Shown: piece after piece, positions 527-62,744 of the stretch | How positions within the stretch are numbered: position 1 is the stretch's first letter | Layout of the letters: each line of letters opens with the position of its first letter | Origin: Klebsiella phage vB_KpM_FBKp24 | Reading direction: 5' to 3' (one strand) | Sequence record: MW394391.1 | DNA: 64,000 nucleotides | The notes under the pieces: generated by a model | Database searches by the model: none | What the model was told of the DNA's origin: nothing | Seen by the model: the letters and a program-made list of their open reading frames with translations, nothing else | Position numbers and translations under genes: made by a program

Positions 527-877
527 ATGGCTGAACCGCTTGTTACTAAACTACGTAACCCGGGACAACCGGCCTACTATACTTTTGGCTGGATTAATTG
601 CGTAGAAGATCACCTTACTTTCTTACAAGACCCAGGAAATGGAGATGTTTACCGTCCTACTGGGATGGAAAGGTCTCGATACCAGGGTCGCTTTTATGCC
701 TTTTTACGCGACGTGGCAAAAATGAATCAACCGCAGTATTTTTACCCTTATCTCAGAGCCAACAACATGACGTCACCTGACCAATTTGGCGAAAAACATG
801 ATTTGTTGATTTTCCCTGATATTAACAAAATAGAACAAATTTATACACGTTATACTGCGTCCCTTCCAACGCAATAA
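527..877 (+). CDS. hypothetical protein (116 aa)
   Basis: ATG ORF followed by a bidirectional hairpin terminator. Confidence 0.55.
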   Translation: MAEPLVTKLRNPGQPAYYTFGWINCVEDHLTFLQDPGNGDVYRPTGMERSRYQGRFYAFLRDVAKMNQPQYFYPYLRANNMTSPDQFGEKHDLLIFPDINKIEQIYTRYTASLPTQ

Positions 878-4069: not shown

Positions 4070-5611
4070 TTAGGGTTTAGCAATTACGGAGCGCGTGTTG
4101 ATAAAGATAATGAATTCCGCTAACAGTTGCTTAAAGTTAGGCGGTACCATCATCCCACGATCGCCGTCTTCAATCATGGTACTTTTCTCAGCAATGACGT
4201 CTACGATGTCCCGTTGCCAATAGTTGTTCGCAAATTCATTGTAGAAAGCGTTAACGGCGATTTCTCCTGGTGTCTTCAACGAAGCTTTAGAACGGGCTGT
4301 TCCTAAAGTCGTGTAACGACGATACGGATAGATCTCATTGAAAACGTTTAATTGCTCCTCTTTAATTTGGCCAGCATTAAAGATGGTTTGAATCCGTCCC
4401 TTTTGCGTGGCACCAATTAAATCTGCTAATACAGAAAACCCATTTTGATGCAGATAGACTTGAGCGATCGAAATCAGACCAATCGCACCTGTCCGATCAG
4501 TATGCGGTAACGCACGCGTGACGCTGTGTTGATGCAATGTCACCGCTACCAGCTTTAACTGACATTCAATTGGATTAAAGAACTTACGGGCGTTATTACG
4601 GGAAATGACGGATACTAATAAACCCCGGTCATAATCGTCACCTAAAATACGACTGGCTTTATTACGAAGTTCATGAGCCCAATAATCAAAGGCAATACGC
4701 TCGCCGTCAGATATACTTTCTCTGACTTTGTAGCTCTCAGCCGTAGAAAGATTATCTTCCTCCCCTCCGGAATCTTTAACCATCGTTTTTGGACGTACCT
4801 CGTCTTTACCGCTACGCCCGCCATCACTCGGGAGCTGAGTTTTAATCGCGCTCCACATCTTACTAATCAGATTAACAGTTTCAATCTGGTCATCGTCATC
4901 ATTGTGACTGAGCTGAATCACGGATAAACGACTTACTACCAAATATGCCAGCATCCATTCCGGGATATCGGCAGAACCAATGCCAAAAATAATGTTCTTC
5001 ATACCGGGCGTAGTTCCTGCCACCACGGCATCAACGAATTCTCGAAAACGTTCCATCGGTTGAGATTCCATAATCTCAGTCCGCCGCAATAACTGTAACG
5101 CATAAATTTCTTTATTCGATTCAGCCATCGCCGATTCCATCGCCAAAAACTCAGTCCATACCGGCACCATCGCTTTCAAGGCAATCGACATATACGTCAA
5201 CTGCCGGTAGTCGGGTTCCAAATAAGTCTGTTCTGGCCGATCGTCTTCCAGTAATGTTGTTTTCAAATCGGGCGGTAGGCGAATATCCGAATAATGCCGC
5301 ATCCAGTGCTCAATTAACGCTAACGGAATAAAACGATACAGTTCGATAACGTCTTCGTTCACAAGACGACTTGTAGTATTGAACTCGTAGGCGTTATCGA
5401 GTTTATCCCGGATATTGCGATAAGCAAGGAAAATCTTTTCTTGAACGTCTTCGTCCAAAAAGGCGAAAAAACGATTAATGTCACGAAACGTTGTTTCGTT
5501 CCACGATAATTTTTTCATCTCCCAGAACAAAACGTCGTACGACCCGTGACCCATGCAAAGTACACGTGTTTTTGTTCTTCCGCCTAAACTTTCATCAAAA
5601 TAAAATTGCAT
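4070..5611 (-). CDS. hypothetical protein (513 aa)
   Basis: ATG verified with GAGGAA SD; motif-1 promoter lies 30 nt upstream. Confidence 0.7.
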   Translation of the reverse strand: MQFYFDESLGGRTKTRVLCMGHGSYDVLFWEMKKLSWNETTFRDINRFFAFLDEDVQEKIFLAYRNIRDKLDNAYEFNTTSRLVNEDVIELYRFIPLALIEHWMRHYSDIRLPPDLKTTLLEDDRPEQTYLEPDYRQLTYMSIALKAMVPVWTEFLAMESAMAESNKEIYALQLLRRTEIMESQPMERFREFVDAVVAGTTPGMKNIIFGIGSADIPEWMLAYLVVSRLSVIQLSHNDDDDQIETVNLISKMWSAIKTQLPSDGGRSGKDEVRPKTMVKDSGGEEDNLSTAESYKVRESISDGERIAFDYWAHELRNKASRILGDDYDRGLLVSVISRNNARKFFNPIECQLKLVAVTLHQHSVTRALPHTDRTGAIGLISIAQVYLHQNGFSVLADLIGATQKGRIQTIFNAGQIKEEQLNVFNEIYPYRRYTTLGTARSKASLKTPGEIAVNAFYNEFANNYWQRDIVDVIAEKSTMIEDGDRGMMVPPNFKQLLAEFIIFINTRSVIAKP

Positions 5612-5668: not shown

Positions 5669-5673
5669 GGAAC

Positions 5674-5699
5674 CGAGTGAGTCCGCGGACTCACTCGGG
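5674..5699 (-). terminator. intrinsic terminator (ccgagtgagtccg/cggactcactcgg), T-rich trailer on - strand
   Basis: 13-bp palindromic stem after the stop of the 5714..6499 gene. Confidence 0.55.
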
Positions 5700-9716: not shown

Positions 9717-9770
9717 GGTGGTTATTCTCGCTATTTAGGGTCTACAGAAATACAGAATAAATACAAAAAA

Positions 9771-9805
9771 GAAAAGGGCACACAATGGCCCTTTTCTTTT
9801 ATTTT
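9771..9805 (-). terminator. intrinsic terminator (gaaaagggc...gcccttttc) followed by T6 on - strand
   Basis: 9-bp stem plus U-tract after the stop of 9809..10429. Confidence 0.6.
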
Positions 9806-11964: not shown

Positions 11965-13866
11965 TTAACGGCCGAAACCGTAAGAAGCGCGAGAACGCGA
12001 ACGGAAACCACCGCCGTCGTAACCGTTAGACTCGTAGCGGGAAGTGTAACCACGACGAGACGTACGGTTGTCCTGAGAGATACCATCGGCGGTTACGACC
12101 ATACCAGCTTCGGACAGTGCGCGGGTCAGACCAAACAGCCAGTTGGCGTTCAGTTCAATCACGTCAGCACGGTCAGTGATCTGGTATTGACCACCGGTGT
12201 AGTCTTCGATGATTTTCTCGATCTGGTCCATACGGACAGCCAGATCAATGCCATCATCGTTCAGGCAGCGGTCGAAGTCGGCGACAACCTGCGGGGATTT
12301 CAGGCCGAAGTTGGTCAGGATTTCGTAGTAGCCGATTTCACGCAGGTCGCGTTTATGACCCTGTTCGTCAACCCAGGTACCGAGCATCTGCGGCATTTCG
12401 CGGATGATACCGACGTCGTACAGATCGTTGGTGTTCATGATCGCAGAGAAGCGCTTACCGGACACGTTATCTGCCGCATCGATCAGAAGATCGACCGCGT
12501 CTTTACGGTTCGGGTTGCTCATGTCGCAGGCATCCAGCAGCAGGTTCAGCATCGGCGTTACGATAGAGGTGCGCGGCACCTGAATCTGAACGATTTGGCT
12601 GTTTTCGCGGATGACGTTAGACACCAGATCGGCCCACTGGCTGTCGCTCAGAACTTCCGGTAATTTATCGAACTCGCCTTTCAGTTCGTAGGTCAGCGCA
12701 TCCGCAGTACGGAGCGCGCCTTTACCGGCGATCGGACGAAGACCCTGAATCAGTACCGGCTCAGTCATCAGTGCAGAGACCTGCGCCAGAGAGAACATCA
12801 GGTATTCCGGGATCGGGTGACATTTCAGCTCGCTGATAACCAGAGCGGCGCCATAGATACGGGTATCTTGGTCTTCCGGTTTTTTGCTACGGGAAGTGAA
12901 GAAGCTGTTGCTCGGCTCTTCTTCGCCTTTGTAGTACAGATCGACATGGCTAACAATGCCCGCCAGCTGAGTGGACTCACGCTCGGAAAGAACGTTAACC
13001 ATACCGCCACGACGTTCGTCACGCGGAGCGACCATCAGATCAACGACGATATCTGCGCGGTGCGGCAGGTCAGTGATGTCGTCAGCGATGTCGCCCTGGT
13101 GGAACGCGATGTTCGCCAGCAGATCGTTGTTTTTCAGGTCCAGTGCTGCAATGCTGAATTCGTTCGTGTTCAGCAGGCCGTTAACCGTATAGATGATCTG
13201 GTTGAATACCGCGCTGGCGATAGTTTCCAGTTCACTGTCGGTCGGTTTATCGTTCAGGATCGGAGAAGCAGCCAGATGCTGTACCGGACCTTTGAACGCC
13301 GGGTTGGACGCTTCGATCAGTGCGTCGAGAGAGTCTTTGTAACCCTCAGCTTCGTACTGGTCGTTTGCCGTAGTGGTGTAACGCACGGTCAGATCGCGGC
13401 TAACGGTTACGGCCTGTTTCGGCATGACGGTATTACCAACGAAGATTACGGTAGAAGCGAACACTTCACCGGTATCTTTCATGCGCGCTGCAATAACGGC
13501 CGCGTCCAGTTTCATCTGGGTTTCTTTGCCGATGGCCGGGGTTACGGTCCATTCTACCGCGCCGTTCAGGCTCAGGGCGGCGGCGTGTTGTTTCTGAATT
13601 TCTTTCGCCAGTTCGACGAATTTTGCTACGTCGCCTGCCGCAGAATTGAGAGACAGTACCGGCGCGTCTTTACGGAAGTTATAAGTAGAATTCACTTTTC
13701 TCTCCTGAGTGTTGGAAGAATCTTGGTTGGTGGTAGAACGGTTATAAGTACGGCGACGCTGATTCTGATCGCTACCGGCAGATTCGTTACCTGCGGTGTT
13801 ACGCGCTTCAGCTGCTTCAACAACGGTGTCTTTTTCTTGGTTGTGATCGTCATCACGTAAAGCCAT
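11965..13866 (-). CDS. chmA: highly expressed early protein (633 aa); candidate phage-nucleus shell protein (chimallin), alternatively a capsid protein
   Basis: size ~69 kDa; disordered N-terminal ~65 aa and RG/Y-rich C-terminal tail; strong GC3 codon bias; motif-1 promoter and strong terminator; PhuZ present in the same window. Homology was not verifiable here. Confidence 0.45.
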   Translation of the reverse strand: MALRDDDHNQEKDTVVEAAEARNTAGNESAGSDQNQRRRTYNRSTTNQDSSNTQERKVNSTYNFRKDAPVLSLNSAAGDVAKFVELAKEIQKQHAAALSLNGAVEWTVTPAIGKETQMKLDAAVIAARMKDTGEVFASTVIFVGNTVMPKQAVTVSRDLTVRYTTTANDQYEAEGYKDSLDALIEASNPAFKGPVQHLAASPILNDKPTDSELETIASAVFNQIIYTVNGLLNTNEFSIAALDLKNNDLLANIAFHQGDIADDITDLPHRADIVVDLMVAPRDERRGGMVNVLSERESTQLAGIVSHVDLYYKGEEEPSNSFFTSRSKKPEDQDTRIYGAALVISELKCHPIPEYLMFSLAQVSALMTEPVLIQGLRPIAGKGALRTADALTYELKGEFDKLPEVLSDSQWADLVSNVIRENSQIVQIQVPRTSIVTPMLNLLLDACDMSNPNRKDAVDLLIDAADNVSGKRFSAIMNTNDLYDVGIIREMPQMLGTWVDEQGHKRDLREIGYYEILTNFGLKSPQVVADFDRCLNDDGIDLAVRMDQIEKIIEDYTGGQYQITDRADVIELNANWLFGLTRALSEAGMVVTADGISQDNRTSRRGYTSRYESNGYDGGGFRSRSRASYGFGR

Positions 13867-22008: not shown

Positions 22009-22072
22009 ATCTCTCTGGACTTACGCCCAGAGAGAAAATAAAAAGACGGAGTGGGAAACCCCCACTCCGTAG
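22009..22072 (-). terminator. tandem hairpins after phuZ; the distal one (acggagtggg-aaacc-cccactccgt) is followed by TTTTTATTTT on - strand
   Basis: read directly from the sequence. Confidence 0.6.
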
Positions 22073-30648: not shown

Positions 30649-30656
30649 ACTATTCG

Positions 30657-30694
30657 AAACAAAAAAAAGAAGGAGGAAACCCTCCTTCTTTTTA
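30657..30694. terminator. bidirectional terminator A8-agaaggagg-aaac-cctccttct-T5
   Basis: read directly from the sequence. Confidence 0.65.
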
Positions 30695-31057
30695 CACAAT
30701 GGGTAAACAAGACAAGAGTCGCTCTGTCACCACTAACGGTGACTTGCGTTTCTTTTCTACTTCTCTACCCAACAAAGCCCGTAATTTGATAGCCTGAACC
30801 CGAGTGAGTTCCCAGACAATTTCATTTCGGGTAATACATTTCCAGAACCCCCAAAAGGAATTCGTGGAAACGTATATGATCTCCTCCTGAGACGCTCTCA
30901 AACGTTCTGAAAGCGTCGGTAAGTCCAAGGTCAATAAATGACCCTCATTACCGCCAACGTCGCCTAAACGCGTATTGAGGGCGTTATATAACGCCCTCAT
31001 TTCTCTTGGCTCAATAATCAGGTCGCGGTAAGCAAATACCTGATAATCACTTAGCAT
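30692..31057 (-). CDS. hypothetical protein (121 aa)
   Basis: ORF. Confidence 0.55.
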   Translation of the reverse strand: MLSDYQVFAYRDLIIEPREMRALYNALNTRLGDVGGNEGHLLTLDLPTLSERLRASQEEIIYVSTNSFWGFWKCITRNEIVWELTRVQAIKLRALLGREVEKKRKSPLVVTERLLSCLPIV

Positions 31058-32269: not shown

Positions 32270-32593
32270 TTAATTGGATTCGAAGGATGTCTCCGAAAGT
32301 GCAATAATTTCTTCCAATCCATCAAGGATCACTCCGGCCGCAATAAGGGTTAGCTCTTCCCCAGATGGTGTTAGGTCACGAACAGAACCCCGCGCTGTTG
32401 ATACAGAAATTAGCATCCTTCTCACTTTGGTATTCATTATAAACACTTCGGTTAACGGTAGGTTGTAGAACACCTCTGCGCGCTGAGACAACTGGTAAGC
32501 AATTTCATTCTGGGAAATTTCCGTGTTCTTTACAGTGTCAAACCATGCCAGAATATCTTTAGCTGTTTCTACGGTTGTTTTTAAGTCAGCCAT
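32270..32593 (-). CDS. hypothetical protein (107 aa)
   Basis: ORF; begins at the duplicated divergent promoter module. Confidence 0.55.
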   Translation of the reverse strand: MADLKTTVETAKDILAWFDTVKNTEISQNEIAYQLSQRAEVFYNLPLTEVFIMNTKVRRMLISVSTARGSVRDLTPSGEELTLIAAGVILDGLEEIIALSETSFESN

Positions 32594-32700
32594 TTTCTTT
32601 TCCTCTAAGTTTAGTTATTCAGAAAGGTCTTTCCTTTCCTATTTCACTGTAGCAATATATACATCAAACAAACTGCATTTCGATTTTTAGAAGTTTGTAT
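32594..32700. repeat. divergent promoter module, copy A (contains CTATTTCACTGTAGCAATATATACATCAAACAAACTGCATTTCGATT); ~88% identical to 54231..54360
   Basis: direct comparison of the two intergenic regions. Confidence 0.7.
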
Positions 32701-32727
32701 GTTAACTGCCCTTTGAAGGAAACTATT

Positions 32728-33972
32728 GTGGAAATCAAAAACCTTTTTGACGACCGTTTTAAGAATGTCGTCTATGATACTCGCTTTGCCAGAGAAATTG
32801 CTGTTTTCACGAAGACCTTCGAGAACAAAGGTGACCATGCAAATTTCTTTGGTAGTGGATTACTCGGTACAGTACGTATCAGATGGACCAACACTGAGAC
32901 CAACGGCTTTTTCGACGATATCTTAAAAATAGACCCAGATGATCTCAAAGCCGATATCGACGAACTTGATTGCATTGATCCGTCCCATATCGTCACCACT
33001 GACGCGTTTAACTTGATGATTGTCTATTGCGTGCATCGCGTGATGACAACCGGTAAGTTATCCGCACCGCAACGAAAAGAAGTCGCCATCAATTTATTGA
33101 GAATTCTTCATTTCAAATTTATTTGCGGTATCATTACGCGTTATTTCCCCCACGGCACAGATGTTCAAATCGCCCTACGAACGTACGAAGCCATGACTAA
33201 CCGTTTTGATCTTAAGATCTACAAGACCTGGGGGAAGTTAATTACTGCCCGTGCCCAGTCAATTCTTGAGCCTAACGGTATCCACGCGAAAACTATCCAG
33301 ACTTTCGCTGATGACGACGCAGTCAAGTACATGTTGTCCGATATCCAAACACGTATCCGTACGGTAATTAAGACGTTAACTGCGCTTTATTACCAAGTCA
33401 GGGAAACAGACGGCCGCGTCATTTCGGTTTCTAATATGGTCGAAGTAGAAGGGACAATGGAGATCCGCGATATCAAACGCGCGTTCCCGAAATATCGTCG
33501 CTATCTCTTTGAACAAATGGTTGACCCGGCAAGTTTTATTCGGTTAGAGTTAGTTGATATCCTAACGAAAAACGCCCCGTCGCAGAAAAAAGCTCTGATT
33601 GCCACGCTGCAATATGTCAGTCTTCACGTTATCAACCCGGAAGCGGTTTTCAGCGGGAAAGAACCTAAACAGAGTAAAGAAGCGAAGAAACTGATTGAGT
33701 TCACGGACAGGACGTTAGAGTATACGTTTGATTTTATTCATGGTAAGGGAATTAACCCACGGAACCTGGCGGAGCTGATCGGTAGTATTAAAGCCGTTCT
33801 CAACGCTTCACGAAACAAAGAACCTGAGGTCATGTACTTACGTACAGAGGGTGACAAAATTGTCAGGGCTGCCACTGGGAAACGCGAACCTACCCCTGTT
33901 TCCGCAGAGAGAACGTCTTTCATTTTATACCTCATTCTACGGACGTTGACGATGTCCTACTACCAAAGTTAA
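32728..33972 (+). CDS. hypothetical protein (~414 aa; track gives a TTG start at 32695, GTG at 32728 with GAAGGA SD preferred)
   Basis: long + strand ORF between the duplicated promoter and the duplicated terminator. Confidence 0.6.
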   Translation: MEIKNLFDDRFKNVVYDTRFAREIAVFTKTFENKGDHANFFGSGLLGTVRIRWTNTETNGFFDDILKIDPDDLKADIDELDCIDPSHIVTTDAFNLMIVYCVHRVMTTGKLSAPQRKEVAINLLRILHFKFICGIITRYFPHGTDVQIALRTYEAMTNRFDLKIYKTWGKLITARAQSILEPNGIHAKTIQTFADDDAVKYMLSDIQTRIRTVIKTLTALYYQVRETDGRVISVSNMVEVEGTMEIRDIKRAFPKYRRYLFEQMVDPASFIRLELVDILTKNAPSQKKALIATLQYVSLHVINPEAVFSGKEPKQSKEAKKLIEFTDRTLEYTFDFIHGKGINPRNLAELIGSIKAVLNASRNKEPEVMYLRTEGDKIVRAATGKREPTPVSAERTSFILYLILRTLTMSYYQS

Positions 33973-34010
33973 AACAAAAAAAAAAGAGAGGGCAAACGCC
34001 CTCTCTTTTG
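33973..34010. terminator. bidirectional terminator A10-gagagggc-aaac-gccctctc-T4; identical copy at 54933..54970
   Basis: exact 38-bp repeat. Confidence 0.7.
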
Positions 34011-34018
34011 TGCCTTAG

Positions 34019-35065
34019 TTAAAGGCCGATTTGTTTCGCTAAACGACAATAGCCGCGATAGAAGGCATCGATCAGAAGATTCTCCAACAGCGGAATACTG
34101 GGAATACTCTGACCAAAAACGTTATAGTTCCAGGTTACGTGTTTCCGGATAGCACAGGTATTTTCTGGCGTAGGGCCTTTGACCATATAAGCGATGTCCC
34201 CTACACTGGAGGTTAAAACCCAACGATCTTCGTCTTCGCGGTATTCTACATCAGTAATAAAACGGTCTGTTTTAAACTCCGCGTCGCTCAAAGGTCCGCC
34301 GATAATGTCCTCAATAGCGTGCCTCATGTATTTGTCAATCAACGGGATCTTTTGAATGTTCCCGTCGATATGGTACCCGAACCCCTTACCTAAAATGGTC
34401 CCAACGTAGAAACCTTCACAGCTGTCCTTGTCATTAGAGCGGTTGATCAACTTCAGTACCAGGTCAGATGTACTGTCGAAGAACAGCGCTACATTGGGGA
34501 GAAACTGATATTCCCCCCGGCGTTGACAGACAACCTTATGCGCCCATGCCAGCTCAAACTGAGAACGCATATACAAAATGAAATCAGCCCCGAGCTGTCG
34601 CTGCCACGTCCGGCCGTAAAAGTCCCCAACCCACGACGACTTATCGTCGGCCATAGTCCCTGAAGCAACAGGTCGACCGTTCATTAGCAGCGTACGTTGC
34701 ATGACATGAATTTTAAAGCGGCAGTTCAGCATAAAACGAACCCTGGCCTTTTCACCCATGTAATGTTGGAAGGCGTGTTGGATCGCAAGAAGGCTAAACG
34801 GTTTTTCATTTTCCTGAGTAAAATGGTAACGCACGGTGTCGCCATGTAGCGTAACAAACACGAGATGTTTCATCTCGAGCGTTGGGGTATTATCTAGCCG
34901 AATAAGAATATTTTCATTTTTATCGGTGAAGATATAACCGTGTTCATTTTTGTATGCGAAGACCGAATTGTTTTTATCAAGGGGCATTACCCCGTCGTAA
35001 TTAAAATTAGAATCGGTCTTTTTATCGTAAACGCTGGCGTAAACAAAAGTTTCAATAGTGGCCAT
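34019..35065 (-). CDS. hypothetical protein (348 aa)
   Basis: motif-1 promoter 69 nt upstream. Confidence 0.65.
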   Translation of the reverse strand: MATIETFVYASVYDKKTDSNFNYDGVMPLDKNNSVFAYKNEHGYIFTDKNENILIRLDNTPTLEMKHLVFVTLHGDTVRYHFTQENEKPFSLLAIQHAFQHYMGEKARVRFMLNCRFKIHVMQRTLLMNGRPVASGTMADDKSSWVGDFYGRTWQRQLGADFILYMRSQFELAWAHKVVCQRRGEYQFLPNVALFFDSTSDLVLKLINRSNDKDSCEGFYVGTILGKGFGYHIDGNIQKIPLIDKYMRHAIEDIIGGPLSDAEFKTDRFITDVEYREDEDRWVLTSSVGDIAYMVKGPTPENTCAIRKHVTWNYNVFGQSIPSIPLLENLLIDAFYRGYCRLAKQIGL

Positions 35066-35131
35066 GTTGATCCTCCTTAAGGGTTAGAGAATAAGAGGAA
35101 TGTCAGCAATAACGCCGACATTCCGTATCGA

Positions 35132-35158
35132 TGTTCAATAGGGTGATATATACACCAC
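35132..35158 (-). promoter_or_regulatory. motif-1 promoter-like element (GTGTATATATCACCCTATTGA)
   Basis: consensus match. Confidence 0.55.
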
Positions 35159-46659: not shown

Positions 46660-46700
46660 ACACAGAGGAGAGAGCCTAGGCTCTCTCCTCTGGTTTTGTC
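46660..46700. terminator. bidirectional terminator (agaggagagagcc..ggctctctcctct) followed by GGTTTTGTC
   Basis: 13-bp stem. Confidence 0.65.
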
Positions 46701-50845: not shown

Positions 50846-51314
50846 AATCAAGGTAAAAACATTTCCCGCCTTTGTTCTCCGCTACTAATTTTTTCAGTCC
50901 GTTAGTAGAGAAGACCACGTAGGCATCCGGGTGACCCTCAACGTACAGTTTGAAATTTTTCGCTTTGGTTACCTTAACGGTGTCGAAGAACGCACGCCAG
51001 TTACTGGATCCAACTCTAGAGAGGGGGGTAATCATCTGGTACGTATCCCCAGCTATGTCAATAACCAACGTATAACGGTCATCGGTAGTAGAAAGAGATT
51101 GTCCTTTCGCGTCGGTCAGGAAAAGCGCCTGATCTGGCCAGTTGTCACCGGTATCGCGACACGAGAACGACAGTGAATAACCGTCTGTACTTTCGGTATA
51201 AAACTCAAGGGTTCCTTGCTGATATGACTCTGTCCAGCGATTCACAACAGCTTGTGAGGCGAAGGACATAAACGCAGAAAGAGCCACCAGTGTTGCAGCG
51301 ATAAATTTTTTCAT
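50844..51314 (-). CDS. secreted protein (156 aa) with signal peptide
   Basis: MKKFIAATLVALSAFMSFASQA. Confidence 0.55.
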   Translation of the reverse strand: MKKFIAATLVALSAFMSFASQAVVNRWTESYQQGTLEFYTESTDGYSLSFSCRDTGDNWPDQALFLTDAKGQSLSTTDDRYTLVIDIAGDTYQMITPLSRVGSSNWRAFFDTVKVTKAKNFKLYVEGHPDAYVVFSTNGLKKLVAENKGGKCFYLD

Positions 51315-51404
51315 GATATTTACCTTTTAGATAGAAGTGTGATTGATTAAAGTGCGGTTTCAGTGGGATGAATCTATAAGAGCGCTTTGCGACTCGGTGA
51401 AGAC

Positions 51405-53339: not shown

Positions 53340-53687
53340 TTACGCAGTTGCAACGCCAGCTTCGTCAACAGAAGCTTGAGTCGTTTCAACCGGTGCAGTT
53401 ACATCGCCGCTTTCTTTTGGGAAAAGCAGCGCCTTCAGGTTTTTGTAAGTGTCGGTGACGTAGGTCACGATCAGCAGACCCGCTACCATATATGCCGCGA
53501 CTTCGACCGCCAGGCTCAGGAAGAAGATTGCGAAGAAGATCAGGATCGCCATCAGAATCGTGTCGAATACGAAGCTACCTAACGCTTTACCCTTCTCAGT
53601 GATAGAGTAGGTAGTGCTTTCGGTATCGCCTTCAACGACAGTTTCTTTAGCGACGAATTGTGCGAAAAACGATTTGAATTTGTTCAT
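53340..53687 (-). CDS. membrane protein (115 aa), GC3-rich codon usage
   Basis: hydrophobic central segment. Confidence 0.5.
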   Translation of the reverse strand: MNKFKSFFAQFVAKETVVEGDTESTTYSITEKGKALGSFVFDTILMAILIFFAIFFLSLAVEVAAYMVAGLLIVTYVTDTYKNLKALLFPKESGDVTAPVETTQASVDEAGVATA

Positions 53688-53770
53688 GATATTTACCTTT
53701 TAGATGGATTAGATAATAACTGCATTTGAGAGAGTACTACTAACACCGTTGAGAGACGGTGGCCTAGAGC

Positions 53771-54071: not shown

Positions 54072-54230
54072 TTAAAGTTCGTATGAGATTGCCATGATCA
54101 GGAAGAAAGGGGAAAGCGCATACCAGGTAATGACACTTACAACCCCGTAACAAATAGCCATCGGTATACTCACGCCGAAGATGAAAAGAGTGATGAAAAA
54201 TCCCATTAGGAAGATAATTAATTCTTTCAT
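54072..54230 (-). CDS. 52-aa membrane peptide (MKELIIFLMGFFITLFIFGVSIPMAICYGVVSVITWYALSPFFLIMAISYEL)
   Basis: AGAGGAAAGT SD; not in the ORF track. Confidence 0.4.
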   Translation of the reverse strand: MKELIIFLMGFFITLFIFGVSIPMAICYGVVSVITWYALSPFFLIMAISYEL

Positions 54231-54360
54231 ACTTTCCTCTTAGACCTCTTAGGTCAGTAAATGGATGTTTAGTTATCAGAAAAGCGTTATATCTTTCCTA
54301 TTTCACTGTAGCAATATATACATCAAAAAAACTGCATTTCGATTCTTAAGAGTTTTTATG
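54231..54360. repeat. divergent promoter module, copy B (CTATTTCACTGTAGCAATATATACATCAAAAAAACTGCATTTCGATT)
   Basis: ~88% identical to 32594..32700. Confidence 0.7.
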
Positions 54361-54388
54361 ACCCCTTCTACAACACAGGCTCTCTACG

Positions 54389-54928
54389 ATGAAAAAACTC
54401 ACTATTTGGGGACTCCCTGTCCCTTTACTCGGTTTTCTTCACTGGTTCGTTTTTCTATTGATTTATTTCTTTGCGTTAATTATTTGTGTTTTTGTCACCC
54501 CGTTCCTTCCTATTTTCGCAACTAAGGAAGGTAGACTCCCTACGTGGTTAGCCTGGTTTGATACCCCAGATAACACCCTTGATGGGGATTCAGGCTGGAA
54601 AGAGAAGCATTCGCTTTGGGTAAAATTTTTACCGGATTGGGCCGAGACTTATGTGGCCCGAGTATTCTGGTTATACCGTAACCCTCTTTATGGTTTCTCG
54701 ATCAGCGTTCTAGGGGCCCCTAAGGATAAACACCTCCAGCCGGTTCTGGACGGTAAAGGCTTTGACGTAAAAGGGACGTATAAGTCGCATTACTGGATGG
54801 TTTATTTCATGCGGGATGATCATGTCAAGAAACGCCGTTTTAAAGTGTATATCGGATGGAAACTCAAAGCGGAAGGATTTGATAAATATCAGTTCGCTTT
54901 TTTGATTAACCCTTTCCAAACGCCGTAA
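54389..54928 (+). CDS. membrane-anchored protein (179 aa)
   Basis: ATG verified; N-terminal TM; flanked by the duplicated promoter and terminator. Confidence 0.6.
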   Translation: MKKLTIWGLPVPLLGFLHWFVFLLIYFFALIICVFVTPFLPIFATKEGRLPTWLAWFDTPDNTLDGDSGWKEKHSLWVKFLPDWAETYVARVFWLYRNPLYGFSISVLGAPKDKHLQPVLDGKGFDVKGTYKSHYWMVYFMRDDHVKKRRFKVYIGWKLKAEGFDKYQFAFLINPFQTP

Positions 54929-54932
54929 TTGA

Positions 54933-54970
54933 AACAAAAAAAAAAGAGAGGGCAAACGCCCTCTCTTTTT
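54933..54970. terminator. bidirectional terminator, identical copy of 33973..34010
   Basis: exact repeat. Confidence 0.7.
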
Positions 54971-55409
54971 ATATTCTTTTTAAAGAATCGATTTCCAGCG
55001 CCACTTCAAATTCGTAAAGCATTCGCCCGAAGAAGGTCGCAATCGTGAGCAAGCCGAGGAGGTATTCGTGATGTACCATCAACAGAATCGTAAAAGCTAG
55101 TGCAACGATGATTCGCTGACAAACATTCATTCCGCCTACAAAGGTAATGTGTTTTTCTGCCTTTTCAACGATCACTTGGCGCATCGCAGGCGTCAGGACG
55201 GCGCGTGTTATATCGGGCAATGAAACGTATTGATAAAGCACCCAACCTAAACGACCGAGAATGAGTGCTACTGCCCATAGACGAACCAAATCAAAGGCTG
55301 TTTCGTTTTGCTTAAAACACAATACAGCGAGTACCACGCAAGAGAGCAGCGAGCAAATTTTAGAGGTGAGGGTAGAGAGGTAGAACATCTTTGTATTCCT
55401 TTTCTTCAT
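54969..55409 (-). CDS. integral membrane protein (146 aa, ~4 TM)
   Basis: hydrophobic profile. Confidence 0.55.
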   Translation of the reverse strand: MKKRNTKMFYLSTLTSKICSLLSCVVLAVLCFKQNETAFDLVRLWAVALILGRLGWVLYQYVSLPDITRAVLTPAMRQVIVEKAEKHITFVGGMNVCQRIIVALAFTILLMVHHEYLLGLLTIATFFGRMLYEFEVALEIDSLKRI

Positions 55410-55459: not shown

Positions 55460-55960
55460 TTAGTTACAGGTCAGAACGAGCTTCCCTTGGATATGGGTCA
55501 CGCCAAATGGCATCTGCTGAGCGTCCAGGTTGATCTTCGGAGCCAGCGCCAGCGTTTTGGTGTTACCTGCGATATTCTGCGCTTGTGCAGCATCAGTCCA
55601 CGCGTATTCCACATTGTTAACGAACACGGAAGTTTGATCGCGGTTGCTCACCGTCATCAGGTTATCGGCAAAGTCGAAGCGACCAGTGTTCTGGGTCAGT
55701 TTCGCTTCAGTGAGGCGCCAGTTTTTCTGGGCCGTGTTGCTGGTCAGCACGAAGTTGATCGCCTTACTGTTATTAGTACCGGTTTCGCCTTTCAACAGGA
55801 TACCGCCGACTTGAACACCGTTCGCGTAATCGATACCGCAGGAGATTTGAGTTTGGTTGTATTCTGCGTCCCAGACCAGTTCATTGGCAGCAAAAGCCGA
55901 AGAGGTCAGTGCCAGAGCGATTACGGAAACAGCGATTTTGATAGATTTCATTTGATACAA
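55460..55960 (-). CDS. secreted protein (166 aa) with signal peptide (AFA-AN cleavage site) and two Cys; GC3-rich
   Basis: MKSIKIAVSVIALALTSSAFA. Confidence 0.55.
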   Translation of the reverse strand: MYQMKSIKIAVSVIALALTSSAFAANELVWDAEYNQTQISCGIDYANGVQVGGILLKGETGTNNSKAINFVLTSNTAQKNWRLTEAKLTQNTGRFDFADNLMTVSNRDQTSVFVNNVEYAWTDAAQAQNIAGNTKTLALAPKINLDAQQMPFGVTHIQGKLVLTCN

Positions 55961-56771: not shown

Positions 56772-56838
56772 TCAATTTCTCGGTGAAAGAAAAATAATAG
56801 AGGGAGTGAAGGGTATTAATACCCTTCACTGTATAATC

Positions 56839-57255: not shown

Positions 57256-57354
57256 GTGAAACTCCTTTTTAAATGGTTTAGTTTGGTTTCGTGAAAAGGT
57301 TTTATTATTCCTTGTTCACCTTAGAAATATATATGTTAAAAAAATTGGAAATCA

Positions 57355-57392
57355 AAAAAAAAGAAAGAGAGAGGAAACCCTCTCTCTTTCTT
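57355..57392 (-). terminator. intrinsic terminator A9-gaaagagagagg-aaac-cctctctctttc with T9 on - strand
   Basis: 12-bp stem. Confidence 0.65.
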
Positions 57393-60542: not shown

Positions 60543-60561
60543 TAAATTCCGTTCACCGTAA

Positions 60562-60600
60562 AATAGAAAGAGGAGAGGGAAACCCCTCTCCTCTTTTATC
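60562..60600 (-). terminator. intrinsic terminator (agaggagaggg-aaac-ccctctcctct) followed by TTTTAT
   Basis: 11-bp stem. Confidence 0.6.
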
Positions 60601-62555: not shown

Positions 62556-62744
62556 GGTTTTGATTTCCTATTGGCTTTGTTTTCGATTAGTAATAGTATT
62601 TAAAGCTGTAGTCTGTATGCGTTTAAACGCTGTTCTTCTTATTTTCAAAACAAATAGATACCGCGTATTTTTTTCTGGGTTCTCGGCCTGGTATTTTATG
62701 TTACCGTAACGTATCAAACACTTTGCAAAGGCTAAAATAAAAAA

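Follow-up and report, generated by a model that had tools for sequence, protein, structure and literature searches.

Two intergenic modules that recur in a 64,000-nt stretch of the Klebsiella phage vB_KpM_FBKp24 genome (sequence record MW394391.1; hereafter, the window) are best read as compact back-to-back promoter regions for phage polymerases, each accompanied by a terminator between convergent genes, with the copies homogenized by exchange. We assign this reading a probability of roughly 0.6. Judged by its sequence, the conserved core of the modules is a variant (TATATTGC-N6-G) of the phage's TATATCAC-N6-G promoter, and it probably drives the neighboring leftward genes rather than the two plus-strand genes enclosed between module and terminator (together, a cassette). 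Features of each of these kinds have been described before in phiKZ-like and T4-like phages.

Module 1 (32594..32727) fills the divergent intergenic region between a minus-strand gene at 32270..32593 and a plus-strand gene at 32728..33972. Module 2 (54231..54388) likewise separates a minus-strand gene at 54072..54230 from a plus-strand gene at 54389..54928. When the window was compared with itself by BLAST, the module and the terminator were its two best direct repeats. The best match of all paired positions 32609-32701 with 54267-54360 at about 87% identity over 95 columns (E = 1.6e-23), with 93% identity in the inner 68 nt and 98% in the inner 52 nt (32634-32685 versus 54293-54344). This search bears out the claim of the initial annotation, a model's reading of the sequence, that a ~110-bp module is duplicated; the 47-nt shared block that it named is correct with one mismatch. 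Over the full spans that it had delimited, however, identity is 73% rather than ~88%, because the outer left parts of the modules (~15 nt in module 1 and ~36 nt in module 2) are dissimilar. Nor is the similarity one of low-complexity A/T runs: the sequence is complex, and a 29-mer from the module was found at the two sites only, with 0 occurrences expected in shuffled sequence.

The phage from which the window derives is a chimallin-encoding, phiKZ-like Klebsiella jumbo phage of ~300 kb. The window region matches 11 Klebsiella jumbo phage records, and its identity is 98% to vB_KpM_Centimanus (299.7 kb) and ~80% to Siatvirus KpLz-2_45. Products encoded in the window include a chimallin homologue (11965..13866, minus strand), a phiKZ-type tail sheath, a divergent family-B DNA polymerase, and a large terminase. 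Counted from annotations, with virion and non-virion enzymes taken together, the Centimanus record contains seven genes for RNA polymerase beta subunits (split beta-type) as well as PhuZ; RNA polymerase beta/beta' genes are also annotated in KpLz-2_45. Given chimallin, the phiKZ-type sheath, the RNA polymerase genes, and PhuZ, we regard this as a nucleus-forming, phiKZ-like phage. In such phages, a virion polymerase is described as transcribing early genes, and a non-virion polymerase later ones (PMC7598289).

Two further copies of the module were detected. Beyond the window, Centimanus has a third full copy at 216807-216887, which precedes a plus-strand glycosyltransferase gene pair; a fourth, partial copy lies in the window at ~57315-57352. 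All three plus-strand islands, together with their modules, are retained in KpLz-2_45 and KpZh_1. An exact 20-mer, TTCACTGTAGCAATATATAC, was also scanned in IMG/VR, where it matched one known relative and one unrelated contig. In the latter (IMGVR_UViG_2061766007_000586; 318.6 kb), the match at positions 5425-5444 falls in a divergent junction and precedes a minus-strand gene by 40 nt. That contig resembles a different jumbo phage, and the lone match could reflect a shared promoter type or, because the collection is so large, chance.

The orientation of the module core was assessed against the promoters of the whole genome. Counting k-mers in Centimanus brought out one strongly over-represented long motif, confined to a single strand. 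Seventeen strict sites anchored on TATATCAC yielded the consensus GTnTCGA...TTTnAnGnC-TATATCAC-YYTAWT-G-AA, and a position weight matrix (PWM) was built from them and applied at a threshold of 8 bits, with the module copies kept outside the training set. Across the 299.7 kb of Centimanus, 27 sites exceeded the threshold, all 27 of them on the minus strand, intergenic, and upstream of minus-strand genes. Their leaders span 23-355 nt (mostly 23-193 nt), and one site lies 67 nt before the chimallin gene. The next best score anywhere in that genome was 4.8 bits, no plus-strand site scored above 4 bits, and Markov-1 random genome-equivalents (n = 20) gave ~0.85 matches above 8 bits. The same minus-only pattern was observed in the window, in KpLz-2_45, and in KpZh_1. 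Consensus-type sites in the window, all on one strand, are at 497, 5653, 13947, 21982, 30639, 35150, and 60533. In Centimanus, where the 27 sites share one strand, the motif precedes none of the ~30 plus-strand genes; such one-strand placement hints at a partial link between strand and temporal class.

This motif has the design of the virion-RNA-polymerase early promoters of phiKZ-like phages (reviewed in PMC7598289): an extended AT-rich element that recurs ~30 times per genome upstream of operons, with a conserved G 6 nt downstream and with chimallin and a polymerase gene among its downstream genes. Predicted early motifs are TATATTAC in phiKZ, TATATTAC-DWHD-GTG in 201phi2-1, and a motif ending in ATATTATYWAAGTGWA in N1M2 (PMC7058600), and the AR9 early promoter is AAATATATATTAT-N6-G, with the start 6 nt past the element (PMC5312081). 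Unlike in phiKZ, 201phi2-1, and AR9, the consensus here is TATATCAC. In phiKZ, the PWM additionally selects a TATATTAC site ahead of gp36.

Sequence, strand, and position all place the three full module copies in this family. Their minus-strand scores are 16.5, 14.9, and 13.9 bits, which rank 24th, 26th, and 27th among the PWM matches. The module core (...TGCAGTTTTTTTGATGTA-TATATTGC-TACAGT-G-AAATAGG) is in register with the early motif in its upstream element, core, N6 spacer, and G. Since TATTTCACTGTAGCAATATATAC, read in reverse complement, is a variant of the main motif, it points at the leftward gene. In module 1, the variant early-type promoter spans 32643..32680 on the minus strand, with a TGCA/T-run, TATATTGC at 32659-32652, N6, and a predicted start G at 32645 (14.9 bits); in module 2, it spans 54302..54339 on the same strand, with TATATTGC at 54318-54311, N6, and a predicted start G at 54304 (16.5 bits). 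The GTG-AA start region of the modules resembles the 201phi2-1 and N1M2 consensus. Unlike the consensus early promoters, the module copies carry TATATTGC or TATATAGC, score lower, and have a conserved leader of their own. Weaker cores listed by the initial annotation at 62595-62621 and 9745-9775 dropped out of the family, having no PWM match and no elements colinear with the module. Two other candidates were set aside. A sigma-70 promoter matches the modules at 9/12 positions on the minus strand, but the sigma-70 scan gave 7 hits in the region versus ~10 in shuffled sequence, and phiKZ-like phages do not rely on the host polymerase. As a shared upstream element, TTTCGAWT proved unspecific, with 21 and 18 occurrences on the two strands, mainly in coding DNA.

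The initial annotation had taken the modules for a second promoter class, on the plus strand. In its full form, this alternative holds that such a class co-regulates two (or, with the third copy, three) cassettes that were acquired as promoter-gene-terminator units, or morons. All three full copies do lie upstream of plus-strand islands, and the similarity between copies stops where plus-strand transcripts would begin. However, the core fits the main family on the minus strand only, with its upstream element in register, its N6-G, and a leader running into a minus-strand gene; the fourth copy is not accompanied by any plus-strand gene; and consensus minus-strand promoters occupy the same junction of other plus-strand islands (Centimanus 35514, 139853, 153303, and 210073). 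The duplication of divergent promoter regions thus stands, and the assignment of the core to the plus strand does not. Together with the gene histories given below, which bear on the moron component, these data make this alternative improbable.

The fourth copy further settles, on sequence grounds, the minus-strand orientation of the core. This family member (57315..57392, minus strand) begins with a terminator hairpin at 57361-57392, followed by TATATTTC-TAAGGT-G with its anchor at 57331, and then the same leader features as the modules. It sits in a co-directional minus-strand setting right behind the terminator, and it has counterparts at Centimanus 198059 and KpLz-2_45 262831; across the three genomes, the variant site reads TATATTTC/TATATAGC-N6-G. 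The fourth copy and the modules share the core, then a purine/pyrimidine inverted repeat (GGAAAG...CTTTCC), then AACTAAAC, a Shine-Dalgarno sequence, and ATG. On the minus strand, this leader occupies 32609..32639 in module 1 (inverted repeat, 32621-32639; AACTAAAC, 32609-32616; ATG, 32593) and 54267..54300 in module 2 (inverted repeat, 54277-54300; AACTAAAC, 54267-54274). The leader features account for the conserved left part of the modules, down to 32609 and 54267, respectively, and the inverted repeat was found in 15/15 sequences.

A second alternative is that a phage protein binds the conserved block as a shared regulatory site, which could be a DNA operator or an RNA element made up of the inverted repeat and AACTAAAC in the minus-strand 5' leader. 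Such a site would set four operons apart as a temporal or regulatory class of their own and be kept identical by selection. Consistent with such a site, a TATATWKC core, the inverted repeat, and AACTAAAC follow one another in fixed order at four loci in three lineages; a perfect 14-bp palindrome, GGAAAGATCTTTCC, lies within copy 3 in Centimanus; and G-U pairs favor the minus sense. A helix drawn by hand for the leader was 86% paired, yet it showed no covariation and tolerated sliding, because its purine run pairs with a pyrimidine run; for these two reasons the leader RNA hairpin is only a candidate. RNAalifold returned no consensus structure for the leader, and no Rfam family matched at gathering score in the whole window. 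In addition, the reticulate identities described below, with a terminator homogenized in the same lineage, point to exchange rather than selection, and the binding protein is purely hypothetical, no candidate having been identified. We therefore consider a shared regulatory site unlikely.

As for the plus-strand genes themselves, their more likely start, on sequence evidence, is a TATG located on the right edge of each module. The similarity between modules 1 and 2 stops exactly at this tetramer, which lies on the plus strand at 32698..32701 in module 1 (predicted start G 32701; GTG start codon at 32728, 27 nt further on) and at 54357..54360 in module 2 (predicted start G 54360; ATG start codon at 54389, 29 nt further on). 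Upstream of genes, TATG occurs 90 times in the sense and 49 times in the antisense orientation, placing it among the most orientation-biased 4-mers genome-wide; AATG, CATG, and GATG show no such bias. Its occurrences peak 20-40 nt before start codons, usually with a C or T preceding. The tetramer persists in three lineages at each of the three cassettes; it precedes the plus-strand start codons by 27-35 nt, and its flanks have diverged. In phiKZ, the late promoter T(-3)ATG(+1) is recognized by a beta-like subunit of the non-virion polymerase (PMC7598289, PMC12809450). The element described here likewise lies a short distance upstream of genes, is sense-enriched genome-wide, and occurs before phiKZ gp32, a homologue of the gene of cassette 1 (TTTTATGAC, 36 nt upstream; in phage Haymo, GGTATGTAAC, 40 nt upstream of the homologue). 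It differs from the phiKZ promoter in that the match here is of 4 nt and is not found before every plus-strand gene, and in that the start at G is a prediction.

At the far end of each cassette, 38 nt are identical at 33972-34009 (terminator 1) and 54932-54969 (terminator 2). The exact repetition noted in the initial annotation is thus confirmed, one base off its coordinates. Each copy is a hairpin, GAGAGGGC-AAAC-GCCCTCTC, with A10 on one side and T4 on the other, in a convergent gap of 40-46 nt; the minus strand presents T10, and the plus strand T4-5. The scan made calls on both strands for terminator 2, which abuts the stop codon of a minus-strand gene at 54969..55409, and on the minus strand alone for terminator 1. 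By scan criteria, then, these terminators would act mainly on the minus strand. phiKZ reportedly has six bidirectional intrinsic terminators between convergent genes (PMC10914365), which resemble those described here in having a GC-rich hairpin in a convergent gap with a flanking A-run and T-run, and differ in that the present runs are asymmetric (T10 versus T4-5) and terminator 1 has no plus-strand call. The naming of these hairpins as terminators in the initial annotation is supported, but they are not special to the cassettes: they belong to a family of at least eight similar hairpins in the window with an A-run, a GA-rich stem, and a T-run (self-BLAST family D1). A minus-strand gene encoding 348 aa (34019..35065) ends 9 nt from terminator 1 and has its own consensus promoter at 35150. 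About 10 nt past the predicted start of that promoter lies a 12-bp hairpin (35097-35124); several other predicted leaders likewise open with a hairpin.

Terminators of this family and early-type promoters form composite units along the minus strand. In four of these, the promoter directly follows the terminator (22033/21982, 30654/30639, 57352/57331, and 60557/60533), with hairpin spans of 22033-22070, 30654-30691, 57352-57389, and 60557-60594. Three others are split, each around one plus-strand gene: the two cassettes and the unit 922 / 527..877 / 497, in which a third lone plus-strand gene (527..877) lies between a terminator at 922-959 and the consensus-type promoter at 497. Since a terminator and then a promoter surround it, each plus-strand gene sits in the gap of a minus-strand punctuation unit. 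The window also contains perfect palindromes of 24-30 nt at 46663-46692, 5673-5698, 56805-56830, and 30976-30999; the first of these lies between convergent genes and resembles another bidirectional terminator.

The two cassette genes are unrelated to one another and are lone plus-strand genes amid minus-strand genes, both as the initial annotation had described. Cassette 1 (32728..33972, GTG start) encodes a 414-aa homologue of phiKZ gp32 (phrog_2921), which carries the annotation "structural head protein" in phiKZ. Cassette 2 (54389..54928) encodes a 179-aa membrane protein (DUF7338 / phrog_2143). Homologues of gp32 were found in 289 phage records from Pseudomonas, Erwinia, Salmonella, Vibrio, and other hosts. 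In phiKZ, Haymo, and PhiEaH1, the homologue is likewise a lone gene inverted relative to its neighbors. In Haymo, moreover, an early-type TATATAAC-N6-G points away from the homologue, and the same kind of terminator lies behind the gene. BLASTP detected no homology between the genes flanking gp32 in phiKZ and those flanking it here, so our claim is limited to the lone-inverted-gene arrangement and does not extend to flank synteny. A solved-structure search with the 414-aa protein returned nothing significant, and the "gp32" of the Goslar structure preprint is a different protein.

These histories weigh on the moron component of the plus-strand alternative. In its favor, DUF7338 and the glycosyltransferases are accessory-type and patchy; the DUF7338 gene occurs unevenly among T4-like, Felixounavirus, and other phages, a distribution typical of accessory genes. 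Like lambdoid morons, the cassettes are single-gene units opposite to their neighbors with their own promoter and terminator. However, lambdoid morons are polymorphic in presence and absence, whereas both cassettes are present in 11/11 close relatives, and the inversion of one of the genes predates the genera. Of the two cassette genes, whose presence or absence in related genomes the initial annotation had proposed to check, the DUF7338 gene alone is patchy, and then among more distant phages. A recent moron-like insertion is not supported, because the gp32 homologue is widespread and already inverted elsewhere and DUF7338 is found in all 11 relatives. For cassette 1, in particular, moron-like acquisition falls away, while the companion suggestion of recombination holds. 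On balance, the observations of the initial annotation were confirmed and its interpretation was partly right.

Evidence for recombination comes from identities that are reticulate among copies. Over a 68-nt core, module 1 is 85% identical to module 2, 79% identical to its own counterpart in KpLz-2_45, and 87% identical to the second KpLz-2_45 copy. For the third Centimanus copy, identity is 68% to its KpLz-2_45 counterpart and 82% to module 1. The two lineages differ in which copies carry the N6 "alleles" TACAGT and TAAGGT. Terminator 1 of KpLz-2_45 has another loop and stem end, and its terminator 2 is unchanged, whereas the two are the same here. Between the window and Centimanus, identity is 97-99% except for a patch of 75-85% from ~29.3 kb to ~32638; its right junction falls inside module 1, at the edge of the block common to the copies, and its left edge coincides with no recognized motif. 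Within this patch, the gene served by module 1 (32270..32593, minus strand, 107 aa) corresponds to the N-terminal half of a 225/226-aa protein of Centimanus and KpLz-2_45, and its DNA is nearer that of KpLz-2_45 (88.6%) than that of Centimanus. Because copies within a genome are as alike as, or more alike than, counterparts between genomes, and because of the mosaic junction in module 1, these data suggest gene conversion or recombination at the repeated control sequences.

A broader version of this idea is that the promoter/terminator repeats serve mainly as recombination substrates that shuffle genes between phages, as the PeSL promoter-terminator motifs of T4-type phages are described to do (PMC2839356, PMC4122927), with the cassettes being mobile at the population level. 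Besides this T4-type precedent, it draws on the recurrence of composite terminator-promoter units along the minus strand, on the mosaic junction between this phage and Centimanus inside module 1, and on the truncated gene to the left of that module, nearer another lineage. The likeness to PeSLs covers repeated units of terminator and early promoter, exchange between copies, and one mosaic junction in a copy. Unlike in PeSLs, the promoters are those of a phage polymerase and not sigma-70, the flanked genes are invariant among relatives, and the unit is split by an inverted gene. When indels and replacements bounded by motifs were sought, a single junction (~32638, in module 1) coincided with a module; the other indels and divergent patches (55460/55502, 57.6-58.1 kb, and the 29.3-kb edge) do not lie at such motifs, and the cassette genes stay put in all relatives examined. 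We consider shuffling of this kind very unlikely to be the main role of the repeats. Near cassette 2, Centimanus has an extra ~1-kb gene annotated as an endonuclease (195157-196125) that is absent from the window at 55460/55502 and may be a homing endonuclease insertion.

Taking the promoter, terminator, and exchange data together, we propose the following account for our preferred reading of back-to-back promoters. The hairpin in the convergent gap would end the incoming minus-strand operon at its T10, and probably the plus-strand gene as well. On the minus strand, the T-run, TATATTGC, 6 nt, and G would restart leftward transcription at 32645 and 54304, giving a transcript whose leader contains the inverted repeat, AACTAAAC, a Shine-Dalgarno sequence, and ATG. 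On the plus strand, transcription would begin at G 32701 and G 54360 within TATG, the type of element used by the phiKZ non-virion polymerase for late genes; the module similarity would end at this element because the transcripts differ from that point. The long identity between copies would result from exchange (gene conversion or recombination) in the same genome and not from recent insertion of a mobile cassette.

Several points weigh against this reading. The module copies score 14-16 bits, far under the 34-47 bits of consensus sites, and one of the 20 Markov-1 random genome-equivalents reached 17 bits. The virion polymerase of AR9 reportedly tolerates very little departure from consensus (PMC5312081), and the TATATTGC variant may therefore be weak, silent, or read by another form of the enzyme. 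TATG is just 4 nt long, is displaced by ~10 nt in copy 3, and is absent before some plus-strand genes and before the PhiEaH1 homologue of gp32; because of its shortness and these absences, we infer the plus-strand start rather than observe it. The same holds for the start sites in general, for the polymerase acting at them, and for their timing, as well as for terminator activity, all of which are deduced from sequence and from published work on related phages. Directly observed are the repeats, the family membership, the conservation across relatives, the reticulate identities, and the gene homologies. On the plus strand, where it has T4, terminator 1 falls short of the scan criteria, and the absence of covariation in the leader also counts here. 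Conservation from the core to TATG could instead reflect an unseen binding site.

Two observations in these genomes lie apart from the cassettes. A 32-nt direct repeat (94%) at 51304-51335 and 53677-53708 covers, in each of two small minus-strand genes, the start codon together with the ribosome-binding region. Outside the window, a tRNA with anticodon tta ("tRNA-Stop") is annotated in the phage tRNA cluster at Centimanus 121400-121483.

For one group of Klebsiella nucleus-forming jumbo phages, these results provide a predicted, sequence-level transcription map: an early-type TATATCAC-N6-G consensus promoter whose sites share one strand, a variant subclass that carries a leader of its own, TATG elements as probable starts, and a terminator family. 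Such a map is useful for annotation, for phage engineering, and for choosing sites at which the division of the genome between the two phage polymerases could be tested. The analysis further illustrates that a "cassette with its own promoter" can be misread if the strand of the motif is not checked against the genome-wide family. In an extension that we consider unlikely, the four TATATWKC sites with their fixed leader (inverted repeat plus AACTAAAC) would form a distinct regulatory class of a chimallivirus, read by another polymerase form or by a phage factor and kept uniform by gene conversion, with the nested plus-strand genes timed together with them. If that were true, no "middle" or specially regulated class of promoters would have been defined by sequence in nucleus-forming phages before the TATATWKC class.

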